DNA from: Candidatus Micrarchaeota archaeon
GTDB taxonomy: Archaea > Micrarchaeota > Micrarchaeia > Anstonellales > Bilamarchaeaceae
Assembly: GCA_014730115.1 (NCBI GenBank)
Contig: WJIU01000009.1
Coordinates: 4,575 to 68,574 of the forward strand
Direction of reading: 5' to 3'
DNA length: 64,000 nt
The notes beneath the pieces are model-generated. The model was not told the DNA's origin. It saw nothing but the letters and a program-made list of their open reading frames with translations, and did not search any database. Within the stretch, counting starts at the first letter, position 1. Each line of letters starts with the position of its first letter. A program made the position numbers and the translations under genes. Of this stretch, positions 29,399 to 41,047 are shown piece by piece.

Positions 29399-30964
29399 AT
29401 GGCAGAAGATATGTTCGAGCAGTTCAGGGAGCATTCCGTGGCAGAATTTTTCAAGAAGAACAGGCAGATGCTTGGATTTTCAGGGAAAGTGCGTTCACTA
29501 ACTATGATTGTGCATGAGTTCACAACCAATGCACTTGATGCCTGCGAGGAAGCGGGAATTCTCCCAGAAATACTTGTGGAAGTTGAAGAGCTTGACAGGA
29601 ACAAGGACCACTACCGGATGACAATCAAGGACAACGGTCCGGGAATACCAAAGTCCCACCTGGGCAAGGCCCTGGGCCAGATGCTTGCAGGAACAAAGTT
29701 CCACCGCTATCTCCAGCAGAGGGGGCAGCAGGGGATAGGGGCTGCGGCCTGCACCATGTTTTCCTATGTAACCACCGGCCAGTCCACCAAGGCAGTCACC
29801 TGCCACAAGGGAAAAAGAATCGTTGCCGACATAGCGATAGACTTCAAGAAAAACAAGCCGGTCATCACCGTTCTGGAAGAGAATTCTGCCGAGGAAACAG
29901 GGCTTACCGTTACCGCGGAATTCAAGGATGTAAGATATGAAAGAAGCAATTATGGAGTCTATGAATACCTGAAAAGGACTGCGCTGGCCAACCCCCATTG
30001 CAGCATAACCCTGGTCGAGCCGGACAATGAGCAGACAACATTCCCGCGCTCGGTTGAAAAAAACCCCAACAGGCCTTACGAAATACAGCCCCATCCGCTG
30101 GGCCTTACTCCCCACGACCTTCTGGAATTCGCCAAGCACAGCAGGGAAAACAAGAGGCTGTCCTCGTTTCTGCAGAACACGTTTGCAAGAGTGAGTGCGG
30201 CCAAGGTAAATGAGCTGAGGGAGCTCACACCTAAACTGAACTTCAACAAACGGCCCGACAAGCTGACCTGGGACGAGGCGGAGAGGCTGGTCAAGGCATT
30301 TTCCCAGGTCAAGTGGATTGCCCCGGCCATGGACTCTCTTGTCCCCATAGGTAAAGAACGGGTTGAGGCGTCCTTCACCAACATATTCAATCCCGAGGTG
30401 CTGATGGTCACCGAAAGAAAGCCAAAGGTATACCGCGGGGGAATCCCGTTCATGGTGGAAGTTGGAATAGCCTATGGCGGGGGGGTATCCGCAGCCCAGA
30501 AAAGGGGAGAGGTGATGCGTTTTGCCAACAAGGTGCCACTATTGTTTGACGCCGGAGGCTGTGCAATCACCGAGACCATAAAGACCATGGACTGGAAGAG
30601 GTACAACATCAGGAATTTCGAGGAAGAGCCTATTGCAGTGCTGATAAACCTTGTTAGCGTCCATGTTCCCTACACCAGTGCAGGAAAGCAGGCGATTTCC
30701 CATGAGGAAGACGTCATGCTGGAGATAAAAAACTCGGTGATGGAGGCCTCCCGGGGGATACAGCGGTACATATCCAGCAAGAAGAAGGCCCATGAGATTG
30801 CAACCAAGAAAAAGGTGATTGGCCGCTATGTCCACCAGCTTTCCTCTGACCTGGCCAGCCTGGCTGATGCAGATGCCGAGAGGATTGAGAAAAAACTGAA
30901 TAAGCTGATAGAGGAAAGGTACGTTAGAAGAAAAGAAGAGGGTGATTCAACTGAAAACAACTAA
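29399..30964 (+). CDS. top6B: DNA topoisomerase VI subunit B
   Basis: Bergerat-fold motifs HEFTTNALDACEEAG, DNGPGIP and GQQGIGAAA; 521 aa. It overlaps top6A. Confidence 0.95.
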   Translation: MAEDMFEQFREHSVAEFFKKNRQMLGFSGKVRSLTMIVHEFTTNALDACEEAGILPEILVEVEELDRNKDHYRMTIKDNGPGIPKSHLGKALGQMLAGTKFHRYLQQRGQQGIGAAACTMFSYVTTGQSTKAVTCHKGKRIVADIAIDFKKNKPVITVLEENSAEETGLTVTAEFKDVRYERSNYGVYEYLKRTALANPHCSITLVEPDNEQTTFPRSVEKNPNRPYEIQPHPLGLTPHDLLEFAKHSRENKRLSSFLQNTFARVSAAKVNELRELTPKLNFNKRPDKLTWDEAERLVKAFSQVKWIAPAMDSLVPIGKERVEASFTNIFNPEVLMVTERKPKVYRGGIPFMVEVGIAYGGGVSAAQKRGEVMRFANKVPLLFDAGGCAITETIKTMDWKRYNIRNFEEEPIAVLINLVSVHVPYTSAGKQAISHEEDVMLEIKNSVMEASRGIQRYISSKKKAHEIATKKKVIGRYVHQLSSDLASLADADAERIEKKLNKLIEERYVRRKEEGDSTENN

Positions 30965-32048
30965 TGCCCAGAAAAAGCTGAAAGAGCTCGGAGAGCAGAT
31001 GGTCAGTGAAATCAGGAAAGGGGAAGGGCCAAAGTTTGAGAGCACCCTGAGGACCAGGAGCAATACCATTTATGACGAGGCAGTGGGATGCCTCCGGACC
31101 GGAGACAAAAAGGAGACAAGGAAATTCCTGAGCGTCGCCCAGGCAAGGACATTCATGCAGACAGTCGCAATCGCTGCAAAAACCAGGAGGTTCCTGCAGG
31201 AGGAACTGCACACCTCAATCAGGGGCCTTTTCTACCAGCTGAAATTCACCCTGGGGGAAGACATTGATGAGGACTTGTTTACCGAACAGGGGGAGTCCAA
31301 CGCCCTGATTGAAGACCTTGAAGTTGCACTGAACGTGAAGAGGGAGGACCTGCACCTTACCACTGACCGGAAGGGCTTTGTTGCCGGCTCCATGAAAATC
31401 AAGGACAAGTTCGGGGGGGAAGAAACGACAATTGACCTCTCCAGGCAGGGAAGAAGCGGGTGGAGCGTCCCCAGCGACGTGGACAACAACATGGAGATAG
31501 ACAGCCTGGATGCTGATTTTGTGCTGGTGGTGGAGAAAGACGCGCTCTGGCAGCGCCTCAACGAAGACAAGTTCTGGAGAGAGGAAAACTGCCTTCTGGT
31601 AACCCCCAAGGGGCAGTCCACCAGGGGGACGAGAAGGCTGCTTCGCAAGCTTGCGGACAAAAAGCTGCCGGTATACTGCCTCATGGACTGCGATGCATGG
31701 GGGTGGTACATCTACTGGACAATCAAGACCGGAAGCATGAACCTTGCCTATCTGGGCAGGGACTTTGCTGTTCCTGAAGCAAAATTCATCGGAGTCACAA
31801 TGAGCGACATCAAGGAGTTCCCGTTCCTGGAGAAGCTGACCATCAGGGCCAAGGATGTTGATGTAAAGCGTGCCGAAGAAATGATGGGCTACCCCTGGAT
31901 AAACCGGCACAAGGACTGGGTCAGGGAACTCAAGCTTGTTTTGAAAACCAGGAAAAAGCTGGAGCAGGATGCCCTCCAGGGAGAGAGGCTTACATTTGTT
32001 GGCGAATACATAAAGAAGAAAATAGAGAACAAGGAATGGCTGAGATAA
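30942..32048 (+). CDS. top6A: DNA topoisomerase VI subunit A (Spo11 family)
   Basis: IRGLFYQL (catalytic Tyr context), FVLVVEKDALWQRL and the Toprim segment VTPKGQSTRGTRRLL...YCLMDCDAWGWYI. Confidence 0.95.
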   Translation: MIQLKTTNAQKKLKELGEQMVSEIRKGEGPKFESTLRTRSNTIYDEAVGCLRTGDKKETRKFLSVAQARTFMQTVAIAAKTRRFLQEELHTSIRGLFYQLKFTLGEDIDEDLFTEQGESNALIEDLEVALNVKREDLHLTTDRKGFVAGSMKIKDKFGGEETTIDLSRQGRSGWSVPSDVDNNMEIDSLDADFVLVVEKDALWQRLNEDKFWREENCLLVTPKGQSTRGTRRLLRKLADKKLPVYCLMDCDAWGWYIYWTIKTGSMNLAYLGRDFAVPEAKFIGVTMSDIKEFPFLEKLTIRAKDVDVKRAEEMMGYPWINRHKDWVRELKLVLKTRKKLEQDALQGERLTFVGEYIKKKIENKEWLR

Positions 32049-32049
32049 A

Positions 32050-34629
32050 TTACTCTTCCCCTGTTTCATCTTCTTCGTCAAGTATGTACGGGCTTCCGCT
32101 GGAAGGCAGATAATCCTCCCAGTCATCTTCATAGGCAAGCTGAATCAGCCTCTTGTCCGGCGGGCACCACGCGATTTCACAGCCGTTCTTCAGCTGGTAG
32201 TAAGCGGCCATCTTGTTGGCACCGGGGTCTGCCTGCCTTGGGAGGTACTGTATTTCACAGTCATGGACATACTCCACGAAATCAGTGTAGCCGTAGCACT
32301 GGTCAAGGTCGGGAAGGCCGTCATCAGTGCATTCCGGAGGATACTCGTCCTTGTCCCTGTTGTCCTCGCACCACTCTGCATCAATCTCCCAGCTGTCCCT
32401 GAAATTGTCCGCCCAGCACCTCCCGTTGTTCCACGATGACGGACATTCCGGGTTGGAGGAGCCGGCATACCAGAATCCTGCGTACATGTTGGCTGCTATG
32501 TAGGCGGCAAAGACGCTGTCCTTTTCATAGTCCTCCTCTCCCCAGTTGAGATAGGCACGGTTGTTCTCTATCCAGGTCCTTGCATCCCCCAGGTTTTCGG
32601 CCATCTTGGCGGTTCCGAAGCAGAGGGTATGGCTTACATTGAACGGGTTGAAACGGCCGTCCGGAGCACAGGCGCGGGCTGCTGGAATCCTCTGGTCTCT
32701 CATGCTCGGGGTGTCAAAGCCGCTCCGGTCGAATATGTCATAGTAGGGGTTGTCCACTCCCGGGGTGAGGCCCTCGGGAAGCTTGTCGTCGGGCCAGAAG
32801 GTGTACGGGGGGTCGGTAACCTGCATAAGCCCCAGGGCGCACCACCTCCACTGCGGGGAATCGGTATCTGAGTCAGGGGCAATGGCAAACGTGCAGTTGC
32901 CGGCAGGGTCGTACATCTCATCATAGGCAGGCTTGGCATAGCATTCACTGGCGCCGCTGGTCACCCGTGCAAAACACCCGGCCCCTTCGTAATCGGCGGC
33001 ACACACCTTGGCCGCGGCACAGGGGTCGAATCCCGATTCGGTGCGTATGAAAGCGCGCACAAGCAGGGGGTCGATGTTCCTGCGGTCTGCCCATGCCTCT
33101 ATCTCAGGGAAAGAAGTGCACCATTCCTCGGGGGGCGTTCCGGTCATTGAAACGCTTGCCACGCCGAAGTTGAACGGCGGCTCTTCCCTGGTCAGATTGT
33201 TGGTGATGCAGTCCATGCACCGGTAGAGCACAGGGTCTGGGTCGTCAAGCTCGGACTGTACAGGGTTTAGAAGGTCCCCTCCCCCGCCAAGGTTGGCATA
33301 CTGCACCTGCCTAATCATGAAGTCAAGGTTTCCTCCCTGGTCGCAGTAGCCTGCAGATTCATTTGGAAATATAATAGGGGTTCCCGCACCGCGGGTATTT
33401 GTGGAGCCGCTGGAAATCTGGGCATAGTCCTGGCATCCTGCGAACCAGGAGCGCAGCCGGTTCTGGTTTTTGGCCAGGTCACAGTCGTTGCACTCCAGGG
33501 GGTTCATGACCCCATATTGAGTGGAGTACATGGAATAGGGAGCCGCCCCTATTACGCCCTTCTGCTGAAGGGCAAGTATGGTGTCCGGCCAGAACGCTGA
33601 GTATGCCTCGGTCATGAGGTTCTCGCTCCACTGGCAGGTGTTGTCTGCATCCGGGCCGGACGAATCAAAGAGAATGTAGGGTATTATGGTCGGCTTTCCA
33701 TGGTTGTACAGTGCATGCTCGGAAAAGTTCAGGGCCTGGCTCATGATTATGTCATCAGGGTCGCAACCATGGGCATACCTGTAGTCAATGCCATAGGCAA
33801 CCAGGTCCACCTCTTCCTTGATTCCGGGGGTGTTGAGCAGTGCATCCATCGCCTCGTAGTCATTGAACTTGGGGGCAACCGCCACAAAGCAGTTGATTTC
33901 CCCGCTCTCGGCATGGCGGTTGGGATTGCATTCATCGTTGATTCTCCTCACCTGCTCTGCCACCAGGTCGGCCTGGCTGGCGTCGGCGTTCATCTCTGTG
34001 ACCACCACTACCGGTCCGACCGGTCCCTCGGTCAGGGTGCCCAGGGTCACATCATCCCCTTCGGTATAAAGCACATGGGCAATGTCCCCTGCCCTGGTGG
34101 CATCAATGTCCTCGCCCCCGCTGTACATTACATACACCGGCATGACATCCTTGGTCAAAAGGCATATTGCCCGGCTGGCGTCGGGAAGCCCATAGGGGTT
34201 CTCTTCATCAGCAAGCAGCCACTGCACCGCCATGCTGAGCCCGTAATGGCAGTAGGTCTGTGCATCCGAAAAGTCGGAAATAGAAGGCCCCTGGCCTATC
34301 ATGAACTGCCGTATCATGATGCCCTCATTGTCATCCCCCCAGAGCAGGTCGGAGGTTGTCTGCCTTGTGCAGTTGGTATTCCACTGACAGCTCCCGCCGG
34401 CCAGGTTGTTTGACATGCCAAGTGATTCGATGTTCAGGCCGCTCTCGCACACGAAGCAGTGGCAGCTTCCAACCTGGCATTCCTCCAGCTGGCTGGGGTC
34501 GGAAACCGCAATCCTGCCGTGCTGCCGGATGTCGTCGTAATAGCTTTGTGCGTACTGGGAGCCGCCCATGTTGCTTACGCATCCGTATGCAAGCAGGAGC
34601 AACATTACAAATATGGCAAATTTTCTCAT
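32050..34629 (-). CDS. Secreted, cysteine-rich 859-aa protein with a lytic-transglycosylase (SLT/GH23)-like core and acidic C-terminal tail
   Basis: Signal peptide with lipobox-like LLAYGC and about 36 Cys by my count. LLVRAFIRTESGFDP (aa 522-536), CALGLMQVTDP (aa 597-607) and FAAYIAANMYAG (aa 707-718) resemble the three SLT motifs. AGGAG lies 6 nt before the ATG. Confidence 0.6.
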   Translation of the reverse strand: MRKFAIFVMLLLLAYGCVSNMGGSQYAQSYYDDIRQHGRIAVSDPSQLEECQVGSCHCFVCESGLNIESLGMSNNLAGGSCQWNTNCTRQTTSDLLWGDDNEGIMIRQFMIGQGPSISDFSDAQTYCHYGLSMAVQWLLADEENPYGLPDASRAICLLTKDVMPVYVMYSGGEDIDATRAGDIAHVLYTEGDDVTLGTLTEGPVGPVVVVTEMNADASQADLVAEQVRRINDECNPNRHAESGEINCFVAVAPKFNDYEAMDALLNTPGIKEEVDLVAYGIDYRYAHGCDPDDIIMSQALNFSEHALYNHGKPTIIPYILFDSSGPDADNTCQWSENLMTEAYSAFWPDTILALQQKGVIGAAPYSMYSTQYGVMNPLECNDCDLAKNQNRLRSWFAGCQDYAQISSGSTNTRGAGTPIIFPNESAGYCDQGGNLDFMIRQVQYANLGGGGDLLNPVQSELDDPDPVLYRCMDCITNNLTREEPPFNFGVASVSMTGTPPEEWCTSFPEIEAWADRRNIDPLLVRAFIRTESGFDPCAAAKVCAADYEGAGCFARVTSGASECYAKPAYDEMYDPAGNCTFAIAPDSDTDSPQWRWCALGLMQVTDPPYTFWPDDKLPEGLTPGVDNPYYDIFDRSGFDTPSMRDQRIPAARACAPDGRFNPFNVSHTLCFGTAKMAENLGDARTWIENNRAYLNWGEEDYEKDSVFAAYIAANMYAGFWYAGSSNPECPSSWNNGRCWADNFRDSWEIDAEWCEDNRDKDEYPPECTDDGLPDLDQCYGYTDFVEYVHDCEIQYLPRQADPGANKMAAYYQLKNGCEIAWCPPDKRLIQLAYEDDWEDYLPSSGSPYILDEEDETGEE

Positions 34630-34672
34630 GGAAAACTCCTGAATAAAATAAGATAAGAAAGAAATAAAAGGG

Positions 34673-37600
34673 CTAATACAGCACCGTTCCGCAGGAACAC
34701 CTGCTGCCCCTCACGCCGGCCCTGCTGCATCTCGGGCAGTAGACCACCATGTGGAGCTTGTGCGGCTGCATGAGCCTTGAGGTTCCCCTTCCGAGGCTGC
34801 GTGCAGTGCTCTTGAGGCCCTGTCCGTAGCCTCCCCTGCGTCCCTCCTTTGCACGCCTCACATAATTGGACACCATGTCCCTGGGCGTAAGGCTGGTCGG
34901 GTAGAGAGGCACTGGCATGTGCCACATGAACGCTATGGGGTTGGCCCACCCCATAAGCGGGTTCTGCATTGCACCGAAGCCCCTGAGCTCCTGGTCCCTT
35001 CTCAATGCAAGGGCCTCTGCCGACACCGTCCTTCTGGTGGTGTTGGTCCAGGCTGCCTCCTGCACCTTCTTGTCATGCATATAGGTGGCTTCGTTGGCCC
35101 TCAGCATGTATTCTGCCATGGGCGCGTCCAGCTGCATCTCGTGCCTGTAGTTGTAGAAGCTGGCACCGGGGTTTACCTCACCGGTCCTTGCGTTTGCATA
35201 CACACCCTTCTTGTGCAGGAATACATCCTGGGGTGCCTGCCTAAGGCCGGCTGCAAACTCCGGACCTGCAAGCTGGTGCTGCTCAAGGCTTCCGCCGAAC
35301 TTATTGAGCTTGGATATCCTTTCGCTGGTCTTGCCCGGGAACCACTTGAAGGAGAACGGGTTCAGCGACTGCATTGCCTCCCTGAGCCTGGGCGGGGTGT
35401 AGTTGAACTGCCTGAGCGCATCGCCGGTTGCATCGAACTTGGCAGGAGCGCCCTGCATGGACATCTGGAGGCCCCTTATCATTCCAGTGTATGGCCTCAT
35501 CATCTTGCCCGCAAGGTTCATCGGGAACCCGTAGCCTGCCATGAAGCTAGCGTACTCGCCCCGGTCCATGTAGGCCCTGAGGTTGCTTCTGACATCAAAG
35601 TTGGCTGAAGGCCCGTAGTGGAAGAACGCCTGCCAGCTCTGCTGCTGACCGAACGAGGTCGACATCCTCCAGGGATTTCTGTCAATTGCAAAGTCCCAGA
35701 CCTGGTGGTAGGAATAATGCTGCATTGCAACATTCCTGTATGCAACCTTCTCCTCCTCGGTAAGGTTCTGCATGTCGCGGCCAGACATTATCCGGTTGGA
35801 AAGCTGCCAGGAGTGCTGCCTGTAATACTCAGACACCGGGGTAATGTCATACGATGCCTTGTGGAGCGGCCCTCCTGCGGCAAGCGCTGTCTTGGATATG
35901 TAGTCTCCGGCATGCATTCCCATGTCCCTGAACGGCTTGATGACCTTGCTGGTAAAGCCGGGGGCCTCCACGCCAAAGAACCTCATTGGCGACGGAGCCG
36001 AAGGTGTTACCTGGCGCTTGGCTTCAACCGAGACCGAGCTGTTCCTCCAGAACCTCTCGTAGTCATGGGTGGTGTTCGCATACTGCCACAGAACCGCTGC
36101 AAATACTTTCTCCTTTTCGTAGTTGTAGCCCCCTCCCTTGGCCCACTTGGTGGCCGAGCCTATGAAGTTGTCCCAGTCATGGGTGTTCTGGGAGCCGGCG
36201 ACCCGGTAGAACTCCCTCAGCAGGTCGTCCCTGTCCCCGAACTTGATTGGAATGTCTTCAGGTATGAACTTCCTGAGCTGCCCTTTCTCGTCCCTGAGTG
36301 CGACCTCGCCGGAGAGCACACGGTCCTGGTCGCTCAGCATCATGTTCTTTTTGTAGAATGCAAAGCCACCTTCATGAAGCATGACCAGGGCCTGGTTGGT
36401 CTTGGCCACATCATCGTAGGTAACCGGCTTGCTGAGCAGCGCCTCGTATTCCTTCTGGTGGGACTGCATTATGTTGGACAGGTTGGACAGGTCCCTGGGA
36501 TTGGTGGTGTCCATCTCCTCCAGGAACCTTATAGTCGGGTTGTTCTTGGCAAAGCCCTTGTCCTTTAGCGCTTTCTCCATGAAGCCGGCCATTATGCCCC
36601 CGTAGAACCTCACTGTTTCCGCAGTGGTTCCGTAGGTGTTGTGCCCGAAGTGAGAGTTGAACCTCTGCTCCATGTCCTGCTGGAGCTGGTCAAGCACCCA
36701 CAGCTTCTTTGCCTCGGAAGTGCGCTGCTGGACGGTCCAGTTGGCTGAGCCGGCTGCCCTGTCCAGCTCTGCTTCTATTGATGCCTGGTAAGGGGGCACA
36801 TAGCTCTTGGTGAACCTGGACTCAACCCACTGGCCGATTGCATAGTTCTCCCTGGGGTCAAGGCCGGAAACCCAGTGCCTCTTCATGTCCACAAGGGTAG
36901 AGCCCTTGGGCAGGGTAAGCTCCTCGTCGGCTCCCCACCAGACCATCTTCTTGGTCTTGGGGTCTATATGTCCGGTCTTGGGCATGTTCCCTCCGTACAT
37001 GAACTGCACTATCTCGTTCATTGAAGCGTTGTTTATGCTCTTGTTGTTGGTCTGCTGGAAGAGCTTTCTGCCGTCCTCGCTGAACAGGGTTATCATGTCC
37101 TTCCTGTTTCTCTCTGCAACAGCCTCCAGCTGTGTCATGTTCCGCATGTGCTCGGGAAGCTCGTGCGCGCCATGTACCGGGTTGAGGGTTCCAATCCTGT
37201 TGGCAACGTTCAGCCTGGCTGAAAGCAGCTCCTCCTTCATTCCGGCATTGGCTGCCAGGTGGCCGTTCTCCGCATCCCAGATATATGTCCGGAAAATCAT
37301 GGTTTCCCAGATCTGCGATCCCTTCAGCGAATCCCCGCCTACATGGCAGAGATAGGCATCCTCATTTGCCATCCCGCCGGTGTTTACTGACATGCGCACC
37401 TTGTTCTGCTGCTCAAGCTCCTCCTGAAGCAGAAGCAGCTTCACATGGTCAGGATGGGCAGACTGCTCTATGCTCTGGACGCTGTTGGCAAGCTTGAGAA
37501 GCTCGCCGTCAACGGTGGCACCCCTGGACTTTGCAAGGTCCAGAAGCGCGCTGAGCTTCTGCTGGCCGTCTCCGGAACCGGTAAGTATCTTTCTTATCTG

Positions 37601-39400
37601 GCCTTCCAGCTGCCGGAGCTCCTCGGACGATGTATATCCTGACCTTTTCAGGATGTCCAGGTCCCTGTAGCCCATCTCCGCAAGCTCGTGCTCGCTGATA
37701 TTGAACTTTATGCCCATCTTGCGGTAAAGCTGCCTTAGTACATACCTCATCTCATCGCGGAGCGTTTCCTTCCGCAGGGTGCGGTAGAGGTGGGCCATCT
37801 TGTCGTTTACCGGGAACATCTGCCCCACGACTATATCTGACGGGTGTTTCTTGGTAAGCCATGCCGCAGTGGCAGACGTCTTTGCCCTTTCCTCCAGCTG
37901 CTCGACTGCGCGCCTTCCACCGACCATTCCCATGGTGGTCCTGGTTACTCCGCGGGCAAGCTCGGGAACCCCCTTGGCCATCTGCTTGGTCATTCTGCCG
38001 GCAACCTTTCCTGTCCTTATTGTTGAGTCGTACATTGCCGGTGCAAAGCCTCCTATGACTGCATACCTGTTGGCCCCGAACGCCTTGCCGATTTTGCTGG
38101 TGACCCTGGAGTGGAATGCGTCCCTTTTGCCTACATCATTGTGGCCGGTAATGGCTTCCAGGCTCTGGTATGTCCTCTGGCCGAGCATGTAGTCCTTAAG
38201 CGTCATTGCCAGGAGTGCGTTCTTGCCGCCCTTTGCTTCAAGCGCTTCCACAATCTGGGCAACAGTGCGGTGGGCCCTGTCATCCCAGTGGTAGGGAAGG
38301 CGCCCTGCGAGATGCTCAAGCTCCTCGGTGCTCATGCCGACCTGGCGTCCTGCGGTTACCGCCGCCTCTGCAATTTTCTTTCCTTCTTCCACATCTCCGG
38401 CTGCACGGTCGCCAGCAGTCCCCTTCAGGCCCTTTATCCCCCTTTTAAGTCTGTCAAGCGTAGCGTCTCCAGCCATCCTCCTGCTCATGCCTCTGGCAGT
38501 AAGCAGGGCTGCACCGGCAGCCTTGCCCATCTTTCCCCTGGTGGTCCTTTTCAGCTCTGTGTAGCCGAAAGGCATCAGCACCTGGCCGCCCGCAGCCACA
38601 CCCTTGGGCTGGGGCATTCTGGGCGTGGTAATGTCAAGCAGTGTTATGGGCGACTTTCCTGCAAAGTAAAGCGATGCAAGCAGCAGGCCCAGTATCATGA
38701 ATACGCCGAGGCAAAGCGGCGAGGTTGAAACCCCTGAAATCTGTGCAACTATGAGGTCCCTGAGGTTCTTGGTGAACTGCTCGGCAGCAGGCACCCGTAC
38801 ATTGTTGAAGTAATATAATGACCTGCTGGGCCTTATGTCCTGGCCCGGCTCCGGGTCGTAGTTTATTCTTAATGTAGTCCTTCCGGGCTGTCCTTCCACT
38901 GCCGGAGCGAAGTCACACTCTGCATAATAGTAGCTTACTGTCTCCAGCCCGCCGGGGTCAGTAGCGGAAGGGGTTGTTGCGGTGCCGGGGGTGCTGGTAA
39001 TTCTATTTGAACACCCCTGGACAGGTGTGTAGCTCCCTGATATTGTATTATAATATTCCACTGTAATCCTGGCATCGCTGAGGAATTCGAATTCGGGGTT
39101 GTATCCTGCAGAGGCCGCAGTCCTCCGGTTGGCCTCTTCCATAATGCATGCCTGGTCTCCTTCACAATCTTCTACAATTTCCTGCATAACCAAGCGTATG
39201 TCGGTCCCGGACTGGCCGGTTGCAGGGTTGAAAACCATCACGCTGACGTGGAGAACGGTGTCCTCATCCTCAACAGGAGTGACTACCACCTGGCTCTCCC
39301 TGAGGCTGCTGTCTCCCCCTGTCGGGAAGCCGCCGGCAAACACGCTGGCGGCAAGGAGCAGCAGCAACACGGCCCCGAAAACATAATTTTTAGATGTCAT
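34673..39400 (-). CDS. Orphan 1575-aa membrane protein: signal/anchor, ~200-aa ectodomain, one TM helix, ~1300-aa cytosolic region, C-terminal zinc ribbon
   Basis: An uninterrupted 4.7-kb ORF. N-terminal VFGAVLLLLLAASVFAGG and a TM helix LCLGVFMILGLLLASLYFAG (aa ~227-247) followed by a K/R-rich stretch. It ends in CPRCSRAGVRGSRCSCG. No P-loop or HExxH was seen, and the antisense ORFs look artefactual. Confidence 0.75.
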   Translation of the reverse strand: MTSKNYVFGAVLLLLLAASVFAGGFPTGGDSSLRESQVVVTPVEDEDTVLHVSVMVFNPATGQSGTDIRLVMQEIVEDCEGDQACIMEEANRRTAASAGYNPEFEFLSDARITVEYYNTISGSYTPVQGCSNRITSTPGTATTPSATDPGGLETVSYYYAECDFAPAVEGQPGRTTLRINYDPEPGQDIRPSRSLYYFNNVRVPAAEQFTKNLRDLIVAQISGVSTSPLCLGVFMILGLLLASLYFAGKSPITLLDITTPRMPQPKGVAAGGQVLMPFGYTELKRTTRGKMGKAAGAALLTARGMSRRMAGDATLDRLKRGIKGLKGTAGDRAAGDVEEGKKIAEAAVTAGRQVGMSTEELEHLAGRLPYHWDDRAHRTVAQIVEALEAKGGKNALLAMTLKDYMLGQRTYQSLEAITGHNDVGKRDAFHSRVTSKIGKAFGANRYAVIGGFAPAMYDSTIRTGKVAGRMTKQMAKGVPELARGVTRTTMGMVGGRRAVEQLEERAKTSATAAWLTKKHPSDIVVGQMFPVNDKMAHLYRTLRKETLRDEMRYVLRQLYRKMGIKFNISEHELAEMGYRDLDILKRSGYTSSEELRQLEGQIRKILTGSGDGQQKLSALLDLAKSRGATVDGELLKLANSVQSIEQSAHPDHVKLLLLQEELEQQNKVRMSVNTGGMANEDAYLCHVGGDSLKGSQIWETMIFRTYIWDAENGHLAANAGMKEELLSARLNVANRIGTLNPVHGAHELPEHMRNMTQLEAVAERNRKDMITLFSEDGRKLFQQTNNKSINNASMNEIVQFMYGGNMPKTGHIDPKTKKMVWWGADEELTLPKGSTLVDMKRHWVSGLDPRENYAIGQWVESRFTKSYVPPYQASIEAELDRAAGSANWTVQQRTSEAKKLWVLDQLQQDMEQRFNSHFGHNTYGTTAETVRFYGGIMAGFMEKALKDKGFAKNNPTIRFLEEMDTTNPRDLSNLSNIMQSHQKEYEALLSKPVTYDDVAKTNQALVMLHEGGFAFYKKNMMLSDQDRVLSGEVALRDEKGQLRKFIPEDIPIKFGDRDDLLREFYRVAGSQNTHDWDNFIGSATKWAKGGGYNYEKEKVFAAVLWQYANTTHDYERFWRNSSVSVEAKRQVTPSAPSPMRFFGVEAPGFTSKVIKPFRDMGMHAGDYISKTALAAGGPLHKASYDITPVSEYYRQHSWQLSNRIMSGRDMQNLTEEEKVAYRNVAMQHYSYHQVWDFAIDRNPWRMSTSFGQQQSWQAFFHYGPSANFDVRSNLRAYMDRGEYASFMAGYGFPMNLAGKMMRPYTGMIRGLQMSMQGAPAKFDATGDALRQFNYTPPRLREAMQSLNPFSFKWFPGKTSERISKLNKFGGSLEQHQLAGPEFAAGLRQAPQDVFLHKKGVYANARTGEVNPGASFYNYRHEMQLDAPMAEYMLRANEATYMHDKKVQEAAWTNTTRRTVSAEALALRRDQELRGFGAMQNPLMGWANPIAFMWHMPVPLYPTSLTPRDMVSNYVRRAKEGRRGGYGQGLKSTARSLGRGTSRLMQPHKLHMVVYCPRCSRAGVRGSRCSCGTVLY

Positions 39401-39463
39401 GAATAGTTCGGGCCTCTGGCGCTTTAAAAATGTTTAGGTTTAAAGGTAATGGTGAAACTACAA

Positions 39464-39484
39464 AAACTACAAGGCTTGTAGTTT
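39464..39484. promoter_or_regulatory. Perfect 10+1+10 palindrome AAACTACAAG-G-CTTGTAGTTT between divergent promoters
   Basis: It lies between TTTTTAAA (minus-strand TATA-like, 39421-39432 region) and TATAATA (39491-39497). AACTACAA also occurs in tandem at 39457-39472. Confidence 0.6.
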
Positions 39485-39515
39485 ATTGTCGTATAATAGG
39501 CAAAAAGGTGTTGTT

Positions 39516-40532
39516 ATGAAAGGACCAAACCCGTTTTCACCATGGGAGGAAGCTCCCGGAAGCATTATAGGAAGAAAAGAGGAAACCAGGATATTTAATG
39601 CTTTCCTCAACGCCACATCCTCCAAGCAGACCGGAATGATAGTGATGACCGGCACCCCCGGCCTGGGAAAAAGCTCCCTTCTCAGGTATTTCCGACAGAT
39701 GGCAGAAAAAGAGGGAATGCTCGCTCCCCTGGTAAAGGTTGAAAAGGGAGAAAACGAAGAGGCAGTGGCCGAGAAGCTCCACCACGAACTGGCCATCCTT
39801 CCCGGCTTTGCAACCCGGGGAAAGGGGGCCCCCTCAAGGCTAGATGAGCTCCCTGATAAAACAAAGCTGGACAAGCAGCATTTCGGGATTGTTTTCTTTA
39901 TAGACGATATAGACCTGATGAAAAAAAACGAGCGTGCTGTGAAGAAACTGGCAGAAACTGTCAGGAAGCATTACGGAAAAAAGCCGTTTTCATTTGTTGT
40001 CAGCTCCACCAGGGAATTCAGGGTAAGGTCAGAGCTTGTCCAGCTGATTGAGCTGGAGCCTTTTACCGAGGAAAATGCAAGGGAGATGGTGGAAAAGGCG
40101 CTCAAGGAGAAAAAACTGAAGATGGGGGAGGGGTGCCTGAAGACAATCCTGGCAGACACCAACGGAAACCAGAAGCTGTTCAAGAGCGTGTGCCGTTACA
40201 TCTACGACCGCCTCCGGGAAAATGAAAAGGTCATGACCAAGGGGCATTACCTCGCCTATCTCCCCTATATAATGAGCATGCTGTCCAGGGAATCCTTTGG
40301 CAGGATGTACCAGGAAACGCCGCCGGCGGAAAGAAGCATACTCCATGAGATAGCAAAAAATGAAAAAGGAGGGCACATATCGGATGTTGCCGGAGAAATC
40401 GGCCGCCCCCTCGGCCAGGTTACCGCGCTAGCAAAAAGACTGCTGGACCGGGGGCAGATTGTGAGGATGGAAAGGGGGAAGTACAGGATTTTTTCACGGC
40501 TTTATGCCCGGTATGTCCTCCAGAGGGGCTAG
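39516..40532 (+). CDS. P-loop NTPase (archaeal-ATPase/AAA-like) with C-terminal winged-helix domain
   Basis: Walker A GTPGLGKSS, Walker B-like IVFFIDDID, and a C-terminal ISDVAGEIGRPLGQVTALAKRLLDRGQIVRMERGKYRI. ATG at 39516 after AAAAAGGTG. Confidence 0.7.
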   Translation: MKGPNPFSPWEEAPGSIIGRKEETRIFNAFLNATSSKQTGMIVMTGTPGLGKSSLLRYFRQMAEKEGMLAPLVKVEKGENEEAVAEKLHHELAILPGFATRGKGAPSRLDELPDKTKLDKQHFGIVFFIDDIDLMKKNERAVKKLAETVRKHYGKKPFSFVVSSTREFRVRSELVQLIELEPFTEENAREMVEKALKEKKLKMGEGCLKTILADTNGNQKLFKSVCRYIYDRLRENEKVMTKGHYLAYLPYIMSMLSRESFGRMYQETPPAERSILHEIAKNEKGGHISDVAGEIGRPLGQVTALAKRLLDRGQIVRMERGKYRIFSRLYARYVLQRG

Positions 40533-41047
40533 TAGGCAAGCAGCCAGTCAGTCTCAAAAACATAGAGAAATTCTTCCACAGACCCCCTGTCTCTGATTAT
40601 TACCGATGCCTCACGGTTTTTCGTAAGGGCAGAATTGCTGAGGTTATGGGAACCGACAAGCACTGCCTTTCCGTCAACAAGTATGAATTTGGAGTGGGTA
40701 AGCTTGTATGTGTCCGAAGCATAACGGACATTGAAACCCTTGGAAGCCAGCTCGCGGTAGATTTCCTGGTTTTTTGTTCCCAGGGTGTTTCTCTCTATTA
40801 TTATCCTAATACTGACTCCGCGGGCCTTTGCCCGCTCCAGGGCCTCAATAACATCCCTAGAGGATATCACATAGATTTCAATGTCAATAGTTTCCTCGGC
40901 TGTATCTATGAAATCAATTATTTTCTGCCCGCCCTCCGGAGAGAATACAGCAGTAATCACAGGAGAAAAGACGAATTCCGAAAGCAGAAAATGGATTGAT
41001 AATCCAAGAATCAGCCCCACAAAAACAAAAGTTGCGTCACGCCTCAT
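40529..41047 (-). CDS. Membrane-anchored single-HKD phospholipase D-family protein (Nuc-like nuclease/phosphodiesterase)
   Basis: N-terminal TM helix FVFVGLILGLSIHFLL and the HKD motif HSKFILVDGKAVLVGSHNLSNSA. Confidence 0.8.
   Translation of the reverse strand: MRRDATFVFVGLILGLSIHFLLSEFVFSPVITAVFSPEGGQKIIDFIDTAEETIDIEIYVISSRDVIEALERAKARGVSIRIIIERNTLGTKNQEIYRELASKGFNVRYASDTYKLTHSKFILVDGKAVLVGSHNLSNSALTKNREASVIIRDRGSVEEFLYVFETDWLLAY

Follow-up and report, generated by a model that had tools for sequence, protein, structure and literature searches.

Here we describe a family of giant membrane proteins confined to the Micrarchaeota, and the conserved gene module in which it is encoded. We studied a stretch of 64,000 nucleotides of contig WJIU01000009.1 (assembly GCA_014730115.1, Candidatus Micrarchaeota archaeon), hereafter the window. 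Within it, at 34673..39400 on the minus strand, lies a gene that begins with ATG and encodes a type-I membrane protein of 1575 amino acids (aa), 100% identical to GF318_00980 of Candidatus Micrarchaeota archaeon. The gene is real and vertically inherited, its family of giant type-I membrane proteins is large, restricted to Micrarchaeota and previously undescribed, and the whole constitutes a new, well-defined protein family and gene module. Directly downstream lies the gene of a Cys-rich protein with a predicted lysozyme-like domain, which we call the partner, and we tentatively propose that the two proteins act jointly at the cell envelope. An earlier note on this DNA, written from the sequence without database searches, had singled out the giant protein as an orphan lacking any recognisable enzymatic motif.

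The gene and its family

The gene is identified as real by its codon-position G+C (GC3 0.714 > GC1 0.549 > GC2 0.437), by the TATA-like box in front of it, and by its conservation across other genomes. With 1575 open codons, the reading frame is vanishingly unlikely to have arisen by chance and persisted without selection; it is retained at full length in 49 species-level genomes, and on the evidence of its sequence the gene is translated. The 1575-aa open reading frame (ORF) of the earlier note is intact in dozens of genomes, with no sign that it is split or untranslated.

A word-indexed search returned 57 homologues at 32-68% identity, nearly all of them 1560-1670 aa long and all annotated 'hypothetical', from Candidatus Micrarchaeota, Bilamarchaeum, Bilamarchaeaceae, and metagenome-assembled genomes (MAGs) labelled 'ainarchaeum'. 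When one genome per species was scanned, the giant gene appeared in 49 species-level MAGs, including a closed chromosome of 1.57 Mb; two of these are 'ainarchaeum' MAGs, and since their TFB is 93-96% identical to that of the window they belong to the same clade. An exhaustive search of 1.84 billion cluster representatives, with a profile built on aa 226-1380, matched 206 proteins at E<=1e-3, of which 75 reach E<=1e-30. Nearly every taxon label among the distant clusters reads Micrarchaeota, Micrarchaeia, or Anstonellales; the strays are a single Parvarchaeota, a single 'uncultured archaeon', and a partial cluster member assigned to Halobacteria. Given 57 homologues, 49 MAGs, and 206 cluster representatives, the protein is no orphan, and the earlier note had also overlooked the motif in and beside the transmembrane helix, the GH23/SLT-like partner downstream, and the operator with its upstream gene for an AAA+ ATPase. 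A full-text literature search found no description of the family.

Conservation along the protein is uneven. Among 37 aligned full-length members, the ectodomain is the fastest-evolving region (column identity 0.35-0.46), while the transmembrane helix and the next 35 residues reach 0.83-0.86, the linker at aa 301-350 falls to 0.32-0.44, and the cytosolic body, aa 351-1525, lies at 0.49-0.77 and aligns almost without gaps. Of the ten cysteines of the protein (79, 85, 130, 162, 230, 685, 1555, 1558, 1568, and 1570), C79, C85, C130, C162, C230, and the four terminal ones are invariant in these homologues. The transmembrane region carries the signature C-x7-GLLxASxYFxG[KR][SDN]PxxL[LF]DITTP[RK]LPxPK at residue ~190-290, and the consensus of its juxtamembrane motif, GLLxASxYFxGKSPxxLLDITTPRLPxPK, is kept even where the cytosolic body has become unrecognisable. 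The core of this motif, G[KR][SDN]P...[LFM]D, is present in 133 of the 144 superfamily proteins longer than 1300 aa.

The loci, which carry our own numbers, come in two main arrangements. In type A (the window, L001-L052, and L058), a gene for a PLD-type nuclease is followed by one for an AAA+ ATPase with a winged helix (AAA+-wHTH) and then by the divergent giant gene and its partner. In type B (L055, L056, and L060), six tandem paralogous polytopic membrane proteins of ~310-560 aa divergently adjoin the giant gene. Profile-profile comparison of type-A with type-B giants (the latter of 2000-2300 aa) by hhalign gives a probability of 99% (E=2e-18), and the match is confined to the C-terminal half of the ectodomain, the transmembrane helix, and the juxtamembrane motif; the same comparison detects no homology between the cytosolic bodies. 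Because the homology is confined in this way, the family combines, at the level of sequence, a conserved membrane 'anchor module' with a very large fused cytosolic part that differs between clades. The giant and partner of L009 are 58% and 42% identical to those of the window, against 84% for topoisomerase VI subunit A (Topo VI A) and 96% for TFB, and this faster divergence of the pair fits a surface system.

Architecture, topology, and structure models

Only two Kyte-Doolittle peaks of at least 2.3 occur in the giant protein, at aa 7-25 (2.38) and aa 229-247 (2.42). The first belongs to the signal peptide, aa 1-22 (39335..39400; this and all other segments of the protein lie on the minus strand), which has K4, a hydrophobic core at aa 7-20, and a conserved ..FA before the likely cleavage site, A22 being nearly invariant among the aligned members. 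The peptide is likely to be cleaved, so that the hydrophobic N-terminus first read as a signal or anchor now stands as a predicted cleavable signal peptide. The ectodomain follows at aa 23-226 (38723..39334), with Cys 79/85 and 130/162 invariant and a net charge of -15. It had been described as a segment of about 200 aa containing Thr and Pro together with C79, C85, C130, and C162; the four cysteines are there, while the enrichment in Thr (9.3%) and Pro (6.2%) is only modest. The second peak is the single transmembrane helix, aa 227-247 (38660..38722), in which C230, G238, L239, L240, S243, Y245, and F246 are invariant.

Immediately inside the membrane comes the juxtamembrane signature, aa 248-282, GKSPITLLDITTPRMPQPKGVAAGGQVLMPFGYTE (38555..38659), where conservation peaks in the family and in the wider superfamily alike, and after it a variable basic linker rich in Lys, Arg, and Gly, aa 283-350 (38351..38554), with a net charge of +9 and 16% Gly. 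The cytosolic body, aa 351-1500 (34901..38350), is predicted to be compact, almost all-alpha, and non-repetitive, with a small beta subdomain at ~aa 990-1045, and carries a net charge of +17. Behind it lies a basic, Arg/Gly-rich, flexible linker, aa 1501-1554 (RRAKEGRRGGYGQGLKSTARSLGRG..., 34739..34900), whose net charge is +9 here and positive (+2 to +9) in every one of the 55 close relatives, and which has the lowest pLDDT (predicted local distance difference test) of the model. The protein ends in a four-Cys, zinc-ribbon-like knuckle, aa 1555-1575 (34676..34738), with four invariant cysteines and pLDDT 83-87. Its pattern is CPRC-x9-CSC, one residue shorter than the CPRC-x10-CSC given before, and across the family the spacing is either CxxC-x9-CxC or CxxC-x9-CxxC. 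From these cysteines we infer that the knuckle binds a metal; its sole similarity in the PDB, to the ribbons of ribosomal protein L32, is not significant (E>3). The ribbon is found in 74 of the 144 superfamily proteins. Two divergent members of ~1970-1984 aa, L048 (4159-10110) and L049 (5782-11694), end without a Cys knuckle (...KKWATSWSIWARRGRV), so the ribbon is not universal even in relatives that keep the operator and the AAA+-wHTH gene.

The topology that this order of segments suggests, with the N-terminal domain outside and the C-terminal bulk in the cytosol, is supported by the distribution of charge under the positive-inside rule and by the densities of cysteines and sequons. Over 131 superfamily proteins, the ectodomain has 2.38 Cys per 100 aa and the cytosolic part 0.36; for N-glycosylation sequons the corresponding figures are 1.02 and 0.45. 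Most of what the earlier note had read from the translation survives this closer look: the single transmembrane helix at aa ~227-247, found both by hydropathy and as a modelled helix; the stretch rich in Lys, Arg, and Gly beside it, with its +9 over aa 283-350 vs -15 in the ectodomain; and the cytosolic C-terminal part, which agrees with the positive-inside rule and with both densities. The same holds for the motifs that it had looked for and not seen. A regular-expression scan of the giant protein found no Walker A motif ([AG]xxxxGK[ST]), no HExxH, as it had stated, and no GxGxxG, and its remark that there are no obvious internal repeats agrees with self-BLASTP, which found none, and with hhalign of 150-aa profile segments, whose best probability was 5%. 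Only half of its description of the body as rich in Met and aromatic residues can be kept, since Met is about twice as frequent as in 24 other genes of the window (4.9% vs 2.5%) and aromatic residues are barely enriched (9.0% vs 8.2%).

Two AlphaFold2 (AF2) models were built. The first, of aa 1-640 from 55 sequences (pLDDT 76.9), shows the ectodomain as a beta-sandwich that includes two helices; over aa 31-200 its pLDDT is mostly 81-96, falling to ~65 at aa 61-70 and 91-100. A stalk helix (205-223) continues into the transmembrane helix (228-246), and helical domains follow the juxtamembrane motif. The second, of aa 376-1575 from 58 sequences, has a mean pLDDT of 84.4 and a predicted template-modelling score (pTM) of 0.85, and forms one compact, almost all-alpha body with several very long helices, single ones spanning 37-59 residues, and a small beta subdomain; after this body come the Arg/Gly-rich linker and an ordered Cys knuckle; its residues with pLDDT below 50 are aa ~1520-1537. 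Searched with Foldseek, neither model matched the PDB at E<=1e-3 (query-normalised TM-score <0.15), nor did the model of aa 376-1575 match BFVD at that threshold, its TM-scores staying below 0.15 under either normalisation in both libraries. For the N-terminal model, only small Ig-like targets reach a TM-score of ~0.45 by their own length. The sub-threshold matches are generic alpha-solenoids, ABC transporters, and tape-measure proteins with TM-scores below 0.1. The predicted fold of the cytosolic body is thus unmatched in the PDB and BFVD, the two structure libraries compared. An alpha-solenoid identity (HEAT, ARM, or TPR) was considered and rejected, as there are no internal repeats and the importin and HEAT matches have E>0.5 and TM-scores below 0.1.

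Sequence searches were equally silent. Against the PDB, phmmer and profile searches with the giant protein gave nothing below E=0.4; Pfam and NCBIfam scans returned only noise (DUF6197, E=0.13; alr0857_fam, E=0.15); and PADLOC and PHROGs gave zero matches. Among 20 members scanned with Pfam, no match recurs in more than three, the two that reach three being DUF6197 and ANIS5_cation-bd, whose best E-values of 0.016-0.024 are below threshold, and a family-library scan of four distant members found nothing. Pfam, NCBIfam, PADLOC, PHROGs, PDB sequence, and Foldseek searches thus leave standing the statement that no enzymatic motif is recognisable, and none of them brought up a homologue in a known adhesin or secretion family.

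The downstream partner

The partner gene (32050..34629, minus strand) begins 43 nt downstream of the giant gene, with which it is probably co-transcribed, and encodes 859 Cys-rich aa with a signal peptide and a lipobox-like ..GC at aa 16-17. Within the partner family, whose members have 720-900 aa and ~24-36 Cys, G16-C17 is nearly invariant and ~24 cysteines are invariant; the protein is probably secreted and lipid-anchored. Its homologues, like those of the giant protein, come from Micrarchaeota only, and PADLOC and PHROGs gave zero matches for it.

Pfam SLT and a set of conserved motifs point to a divergent GH23/SLT lysozyme-like domain at aa 498-745 (32395..33138, minus strand). The Pfam match is weak, at 21.4 bits vs a gathering cut-off of 21.3 (E=2e-4), and reaches E<=0.01 in 6 of 28 family members. 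The residues E531, G600, and Q603 (the GLMQ motif, G600..Q603) are invariant, and S532 and Y716 nearly so. With a profile of aa 498-745, the best PDB matches are the lytic transglycosylase EtgA (E=0.018) and goose-type lysozyme (E=0.074), in an alignment that spans the ES and GLMQ motifs, between which the partner has a Cys-rich insert of ~70 aa. We predict a divergent GH23/SLT domain whose catalytic Glu is kept. The N-terminal half looks like a TIM-barrel glycosidase in its sequence pattern; a profile of the whole partner found nothing in the PDB for that half, which has no match in the family libraries either.

The pairing of the two genes is highly consistent. The partner is the very next gene after the giant in 44 of the 49 MAG loci; the rest have no match, mostly at the ends of contigs. 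Wherever there was sequence beyond the giant gene to read, a gene of this kind came next. The same holds in L055-L060, whose giants have 1750-2300 aa: a Cys-rich gene of 717-895 aa lies directly downstream in all six, overlapping the giant gene in L055, and the three of these distant partners that were tested are homologous to that of the window (~25% identity over ~700 aa, E 1e-36 to 1e-39). Because the partner follows the giant even in these loci, and is homologous wherever tested, the pair is, on sequence and gene order, a deeply conserved unit. The TIM-barrel look of the partner's N-terminal half comes from aa ~100-400, which by eye alternate regularly between short hydrophobic strands and helices (PVYVLYS, IVVTE, CFVAVAPK, VDLVAYGIN, PTIIPYVLFD, GVIGIAPYS).

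The putative upstream control region

Between the divergent giant and AAA+-wHTH genes lies a region of 115 bp, and in it, ~25 nt upstream of a TATA-like box, a 30-bp operator-like element, AAACTACAAGCCTTGTAGTTTTTGTAGTTT (39455..39484, minus strand), composed of an inverted pair and a third, direct TGTAGT half-site. The element occurs nowhere else in the window, where the chance expectation is 0. A loose regular expression finds it at the same place in 47 of 60 loci, where its nucleotides are conserved even at 35-40% protein identity; recognisable variants occur in L014, L022, L025, L028, and L049, and further misses are L018 and L057, which are without upstream sequence. All six fully sequenced loci without an AAA+-wHTH gene (L053-L056, L059, and L060) also lack the element. 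The TATA-like box, TTTTTAAAG (39422..39430, minus strand), stands 22-30 nt upstream of the ATG, which would leave a short leader or none, and a TTTA(T/A)AAAG-like box is found at equal distance in most related loci; it presumably acts as the promoter.

The AAA+ ATPase with a C-terminal winged helix (39516..40532, plus strand) has 338 aa, a Walker A motif GTPGLGKSS, a Walker B motif IVFFIDD, and matches to Pfam AAA_16, AAA_22, and ATPase_2. The mechanical ORF call starts it at TTG 39486 (39486-40532); its true start is most likely ATG 39516, because MKGPNPF is conserved and because of the position of the operator. From the co-occurrence of operator and gene, the AAA+-wHTH protein is a candidate regulator that would bind the operator. 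It was rejected as a canonical Orc1/Cdc6, since TIGR02928 scores 21 bits vs a cut-off of 181.3 and phmmer finds no Orc1/Cdc6 PDB chain at E<=0.1. A replication origin was likewise rejected as the primary interpretation of the repeats: the inverted half-sites do not enclose an AT-rich unwinding element, and across the window GC skew follows the gene strand.

Locus types and neighbouring genes

Of the 49 MAG loci, 46 have the AAA+-wHTH gene upstream in divergent orientation, 34 have Topo VI A/B as a neighbour, and 32 include a gene for a PLD-type nuclease; the gene order recurs in the 49 species with Topo VI, TFB, and PGK at its flanks. In the window, the PLD-family nuclease-like protein (172 aa, PLDc_2; 40529-41047, minus strand) is convergent with the AAA+-wHTH gene, with a 4-bp overlap, and its best PADLOC models are DrmC of DISARM. 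The PLD and AAA+-wHTH genes, together in 32 of the 49 loci, could be a small defence or DNA-processing pair of their own.

Type-B loci are without the Topo VI, PLD, and AAA genes, and the lysozyme-like partner alone persists. Their six polytopic paralogues (L055 2782-9959; L056 2687-9764; L060 2251-9895) share a motif LPxGxxLRAFPxTRxxGG and a C-terminal ...GxExxxxxLxKLI, are found only in Micrarchaeota, and have no Pfam match, to TrbL/VirB6 or otherwise. When every ORF of the window and of 57 loci was screened with a hidden Markov model of the 12 paralogues, the only matches lay in L055 and L056. A fourth genome has the paralogue AUJ17_04285 and the giant AUJ17_04320 seven genes apart, judging by their locus tags.

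The G+C content of the window is 0.56-0.57 at 32-38 kb vs ~0.50 elsewhere. The giant gene and partner (32050-39400) and Topo VI A (30942-32048) have the highest third-position G+C among 22 genes, 0.69-0.71 vs 0.47-0.63, and the local rise is due to these high third positions, which may reflect codon bias rather than foreign origin. Inteins, recognised by Intein_splicing and LAGLIDADG matches in housekeeping genes (radical SAM, RtcB, and SufB), occur near the module in L001 (18179-20608), L055 (23057-25909), and L056 (26328-26885).

A tentative envelope module and its alternatives

Our preferred interpretation, which we put forward tentatively and well short of conviction, is that the giant protein and its partner act jointly as an envelope module, in which the giant, at the cell surface or where cells make contact, would be the scaffold that couples the two sides of the membrane. 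In such an arrangement the two proteins would form one envelope machine, whose small ectodomain would hold or position the glycan-cleaving partner at the outer face of the membrane. The invariant transmembrane and juxtamembrane segment would pack against other membrane subunits or against itself, and the large cytosolic body would connect this membrane site to cytoplasmic components, while the AAA+-wHTH protein would set expression via the operator. The outcome might be the breaching or remodelling of the glycan-containing envelope of a partner cell, or the remodelling of the cell's own.

Several points weigh against this proposal. It is gene order, and gene order only, that suggests a functional link between giant and partner. 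The GH23/SLT assignment is weak by sequence (E 2e-4 to 0.07), and archaea have no murein. The invariant motif at aa 248-277 has pLDDT below 50 in the monomer AF2 model; because confidence is low at exactly this motif, the model suggests that it needs a partner or an oligomer. The 1300-aa cytosolic body may possibly hide an unrecognised enzymatic activity, since a repeat-free pure scaffold of such size would be unusual. The single Micrarchaeon examined in culture has an S-layer (bioRxiv 10.1101/2021.04.28.441871), and some Anstonellales are proposed, in a passage of PMC8561730, to be free-living, which weakens the idea of host contact.

A broader version, which we regard as rather doubtful, would join the giant, the lysozyme-like lipoprotein, and, in other clades, the six polytopic paralogues into an unrecognised, Micrarchaeota-specific, envelope-spanning machine with its own fold and its own AAA+-wHTH/operator control, mediating the cell-cell contact or the envelope breaching on which these DPANN archaea depend or, alternatively, building internal cages. 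Cages alone are the subject of a distinct explanation, a cytoskeletal or organelle-building role, in which the membrane-anchored all-alpha body polymerises or scaffolds a Micrarchaeota-specific internal structure, such as protein cages, with the lysozyme-like gene only loosely related. Unexplained large protein cages have indeed been seen in a cultured Micrarchaeon (PMC11329633), and a protein restricted to the phylum (49 species-level MAGs), with 1300-2000 aa of cytosolic helices, single ones as long as 37-59 residues, and no enzymatic motif, would suit the role. However, the pTM of 0.85 speaks for a globular, compact body and against a coiled coil that forms filaments, there are no repeats, and it is the membrane module, not the cytosolic body, that is conserved between clades, so that we consider this explanation unlikely.

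Quite unlikely, too, is a membrane tether for nucleic acid, in which the Arg/Gly-rich linker and terminal zinc ribbon would bind DNA or RNA and so anchor the chromosome, a transcript, or a ribonucleoprotein. The RGG-like linker keeps its charge in 55 relatives (+2 to +9), the four cysteines of the ribbon are invariant and its weak PDB similarities include L32 ribbons, 34 of 49 loci have Topo VI A/B beside the module, and the genes of the PLD nuclease and of the AAA+-wHTH protein lie upstream. Yet barely half of the superfamily (74 of 144) has the ribbon, L048 and L049 do without it, the L32 matches are not significant, and type-B loci lack the Topo VI, PLD, and AAA genes altogether.

A secretion, conjugation, or DNA-transfer apparatus following the logic of a type IV secretion system (T4SS), with a VirB1- or EtgA-like transglycosylase, VirB6-like polytopic paralogues, and a large bitopic subunit, is a very unlikely identity for the module. 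It would account for EtgA, a transglycosylase of the type III secretion system (T3SS), being the best PDB match of the partner's GH23 domain, and for the six tandem polytopic paralogues that adjoin the pair in three loci. However, the nine loci whose genes were tabulated have no VirB4, VirD4, HerA/FtsK-type ATPase, pilin, or relaxase; the paralogues have no Pfam match to TrbL/VirB6; and the module sits among housekeeping genes, in a synteny kept in dozens of related MAGs, unlike a mobile element. With no Pfam domains of a VirB4-type ATPase, coupling protein, or pilin in the nine loci or among the neighbours in the window, we rejected the T4SS-like reading.

Finally, that the module is cargo of an integrated virus, plasmid, or defence island is extremely improbable: the raised G+C at 32-38 kb, the DrmC matches of the PLD protein, and an adjacent STAND-like ATPase could be cited for it, but the G+C excess lies mainly at third codon positions and is common to Topo VI A, the gene order recurs in 49 species with Topo VI, TFB, and PGK and is kept in dozens of MAGs, no tRNA, integrase, or repeat boundary was seen around the module in the window, and neither giant nor partner matches PHROGs or PADLOC, so that a mobile element or horizontal gene transfer was rejected.

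Significance and comparison with known systems

The DPANN make up a large share of archaeal diversity, and the proteins that build their surfaces and contacts are almost uncharacterised. What is gained here is a diagnostic signature, a confident model unmatched in the PDB and BFVD, an extracellular lysozyme-like partner as predicted from its sequence, and a candidate regulator with a putative binding site, and the family offers testable handles in the few cultivated co-cultures of Micrarchaeota with their hosts. A large all-alpha protein of this kind, without a match in either structure library, is a target for experimental structure determination. Should the protein prove to be only a lineage-specific scaffold, the work still supplies an annotation for ~200 clusters of 'hypothetical proteins'.

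Enzymes of the partner's kind have been noted in archaea before: the passages concerned report SLT-domain proteins from Pacearchaeota and Woesearchaeota (PMC8204110); three Micrarchaeota genomes are noted to encode lytic murein transglycosylases (Chen et al. 2018, PMC5864196), and a Norongarragalina MAG a GH23 enzyme (PMC8561730). Like the partner, the DPANN proteins of PMC8204110 and PMC5864196 are, according to those passages, secreted SLT-domain proteins, and they are proposed to act on the walls of other cells. They differ in that the SLT proteins are presented alone: a keyword search of the text of these two papers found no giant cytosolic membrane partner, transmembrane motif, or operator, and the passages of all three make no mention of a giant partner, the signature, a paralogue array, or an operator.

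The partner, as opposed to the giant protein, probably has its closest relatives among the specialised lytic transglycosylases of envelope-spanning machines, such as EtgA of the T3SS and VirB1 of the T4SS, and the goose-type lysozymes of GH23. It keeps their ES and GLMQ motifs and matches SLT at the gathering threshold. It differs from them in its 720-900 aa, its ~24-36 Cys, its large unmatched N-terminal half, and its Cys-rich insert of ~70 aa, and, unlike EtgA and VirB1, it has no secretion-system genes found near it.

Bacteria possess bitopic proteins that couple the cytoplasm to extracellular wall hydrolases or synthases, among them RodZ, which works with MreB, and FtsEX, which works with EnvC and amidases. 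The likeness to the giant protein is one of analogy only: a single-pass protein with a cytoplasmic domain, a small outside domain, and a genetic link to an enzyme predicted to cleave glycans outside the cell. The giant protein has no sequence or fold similarity to them, its cytosolic part is more than 10x larger, no ABC ATPase or actin-like partner lies near its gene, and its archaeal host is without murein.

The SPEARE proteins of Nanohaloarchaeota are reportedly mostly extracellular, with recognisable protease, adhesion, and nuclease domains, whereas more than 80% of the giant Micrarchaeota protein is, by its predicted topology, cytosolic, with nothing recognisable in it. What the two have in common is that each is a very large, lineage-specific, membrane-associated protein of a small DPANN genome, with a suspected role in cell-cell interaction.

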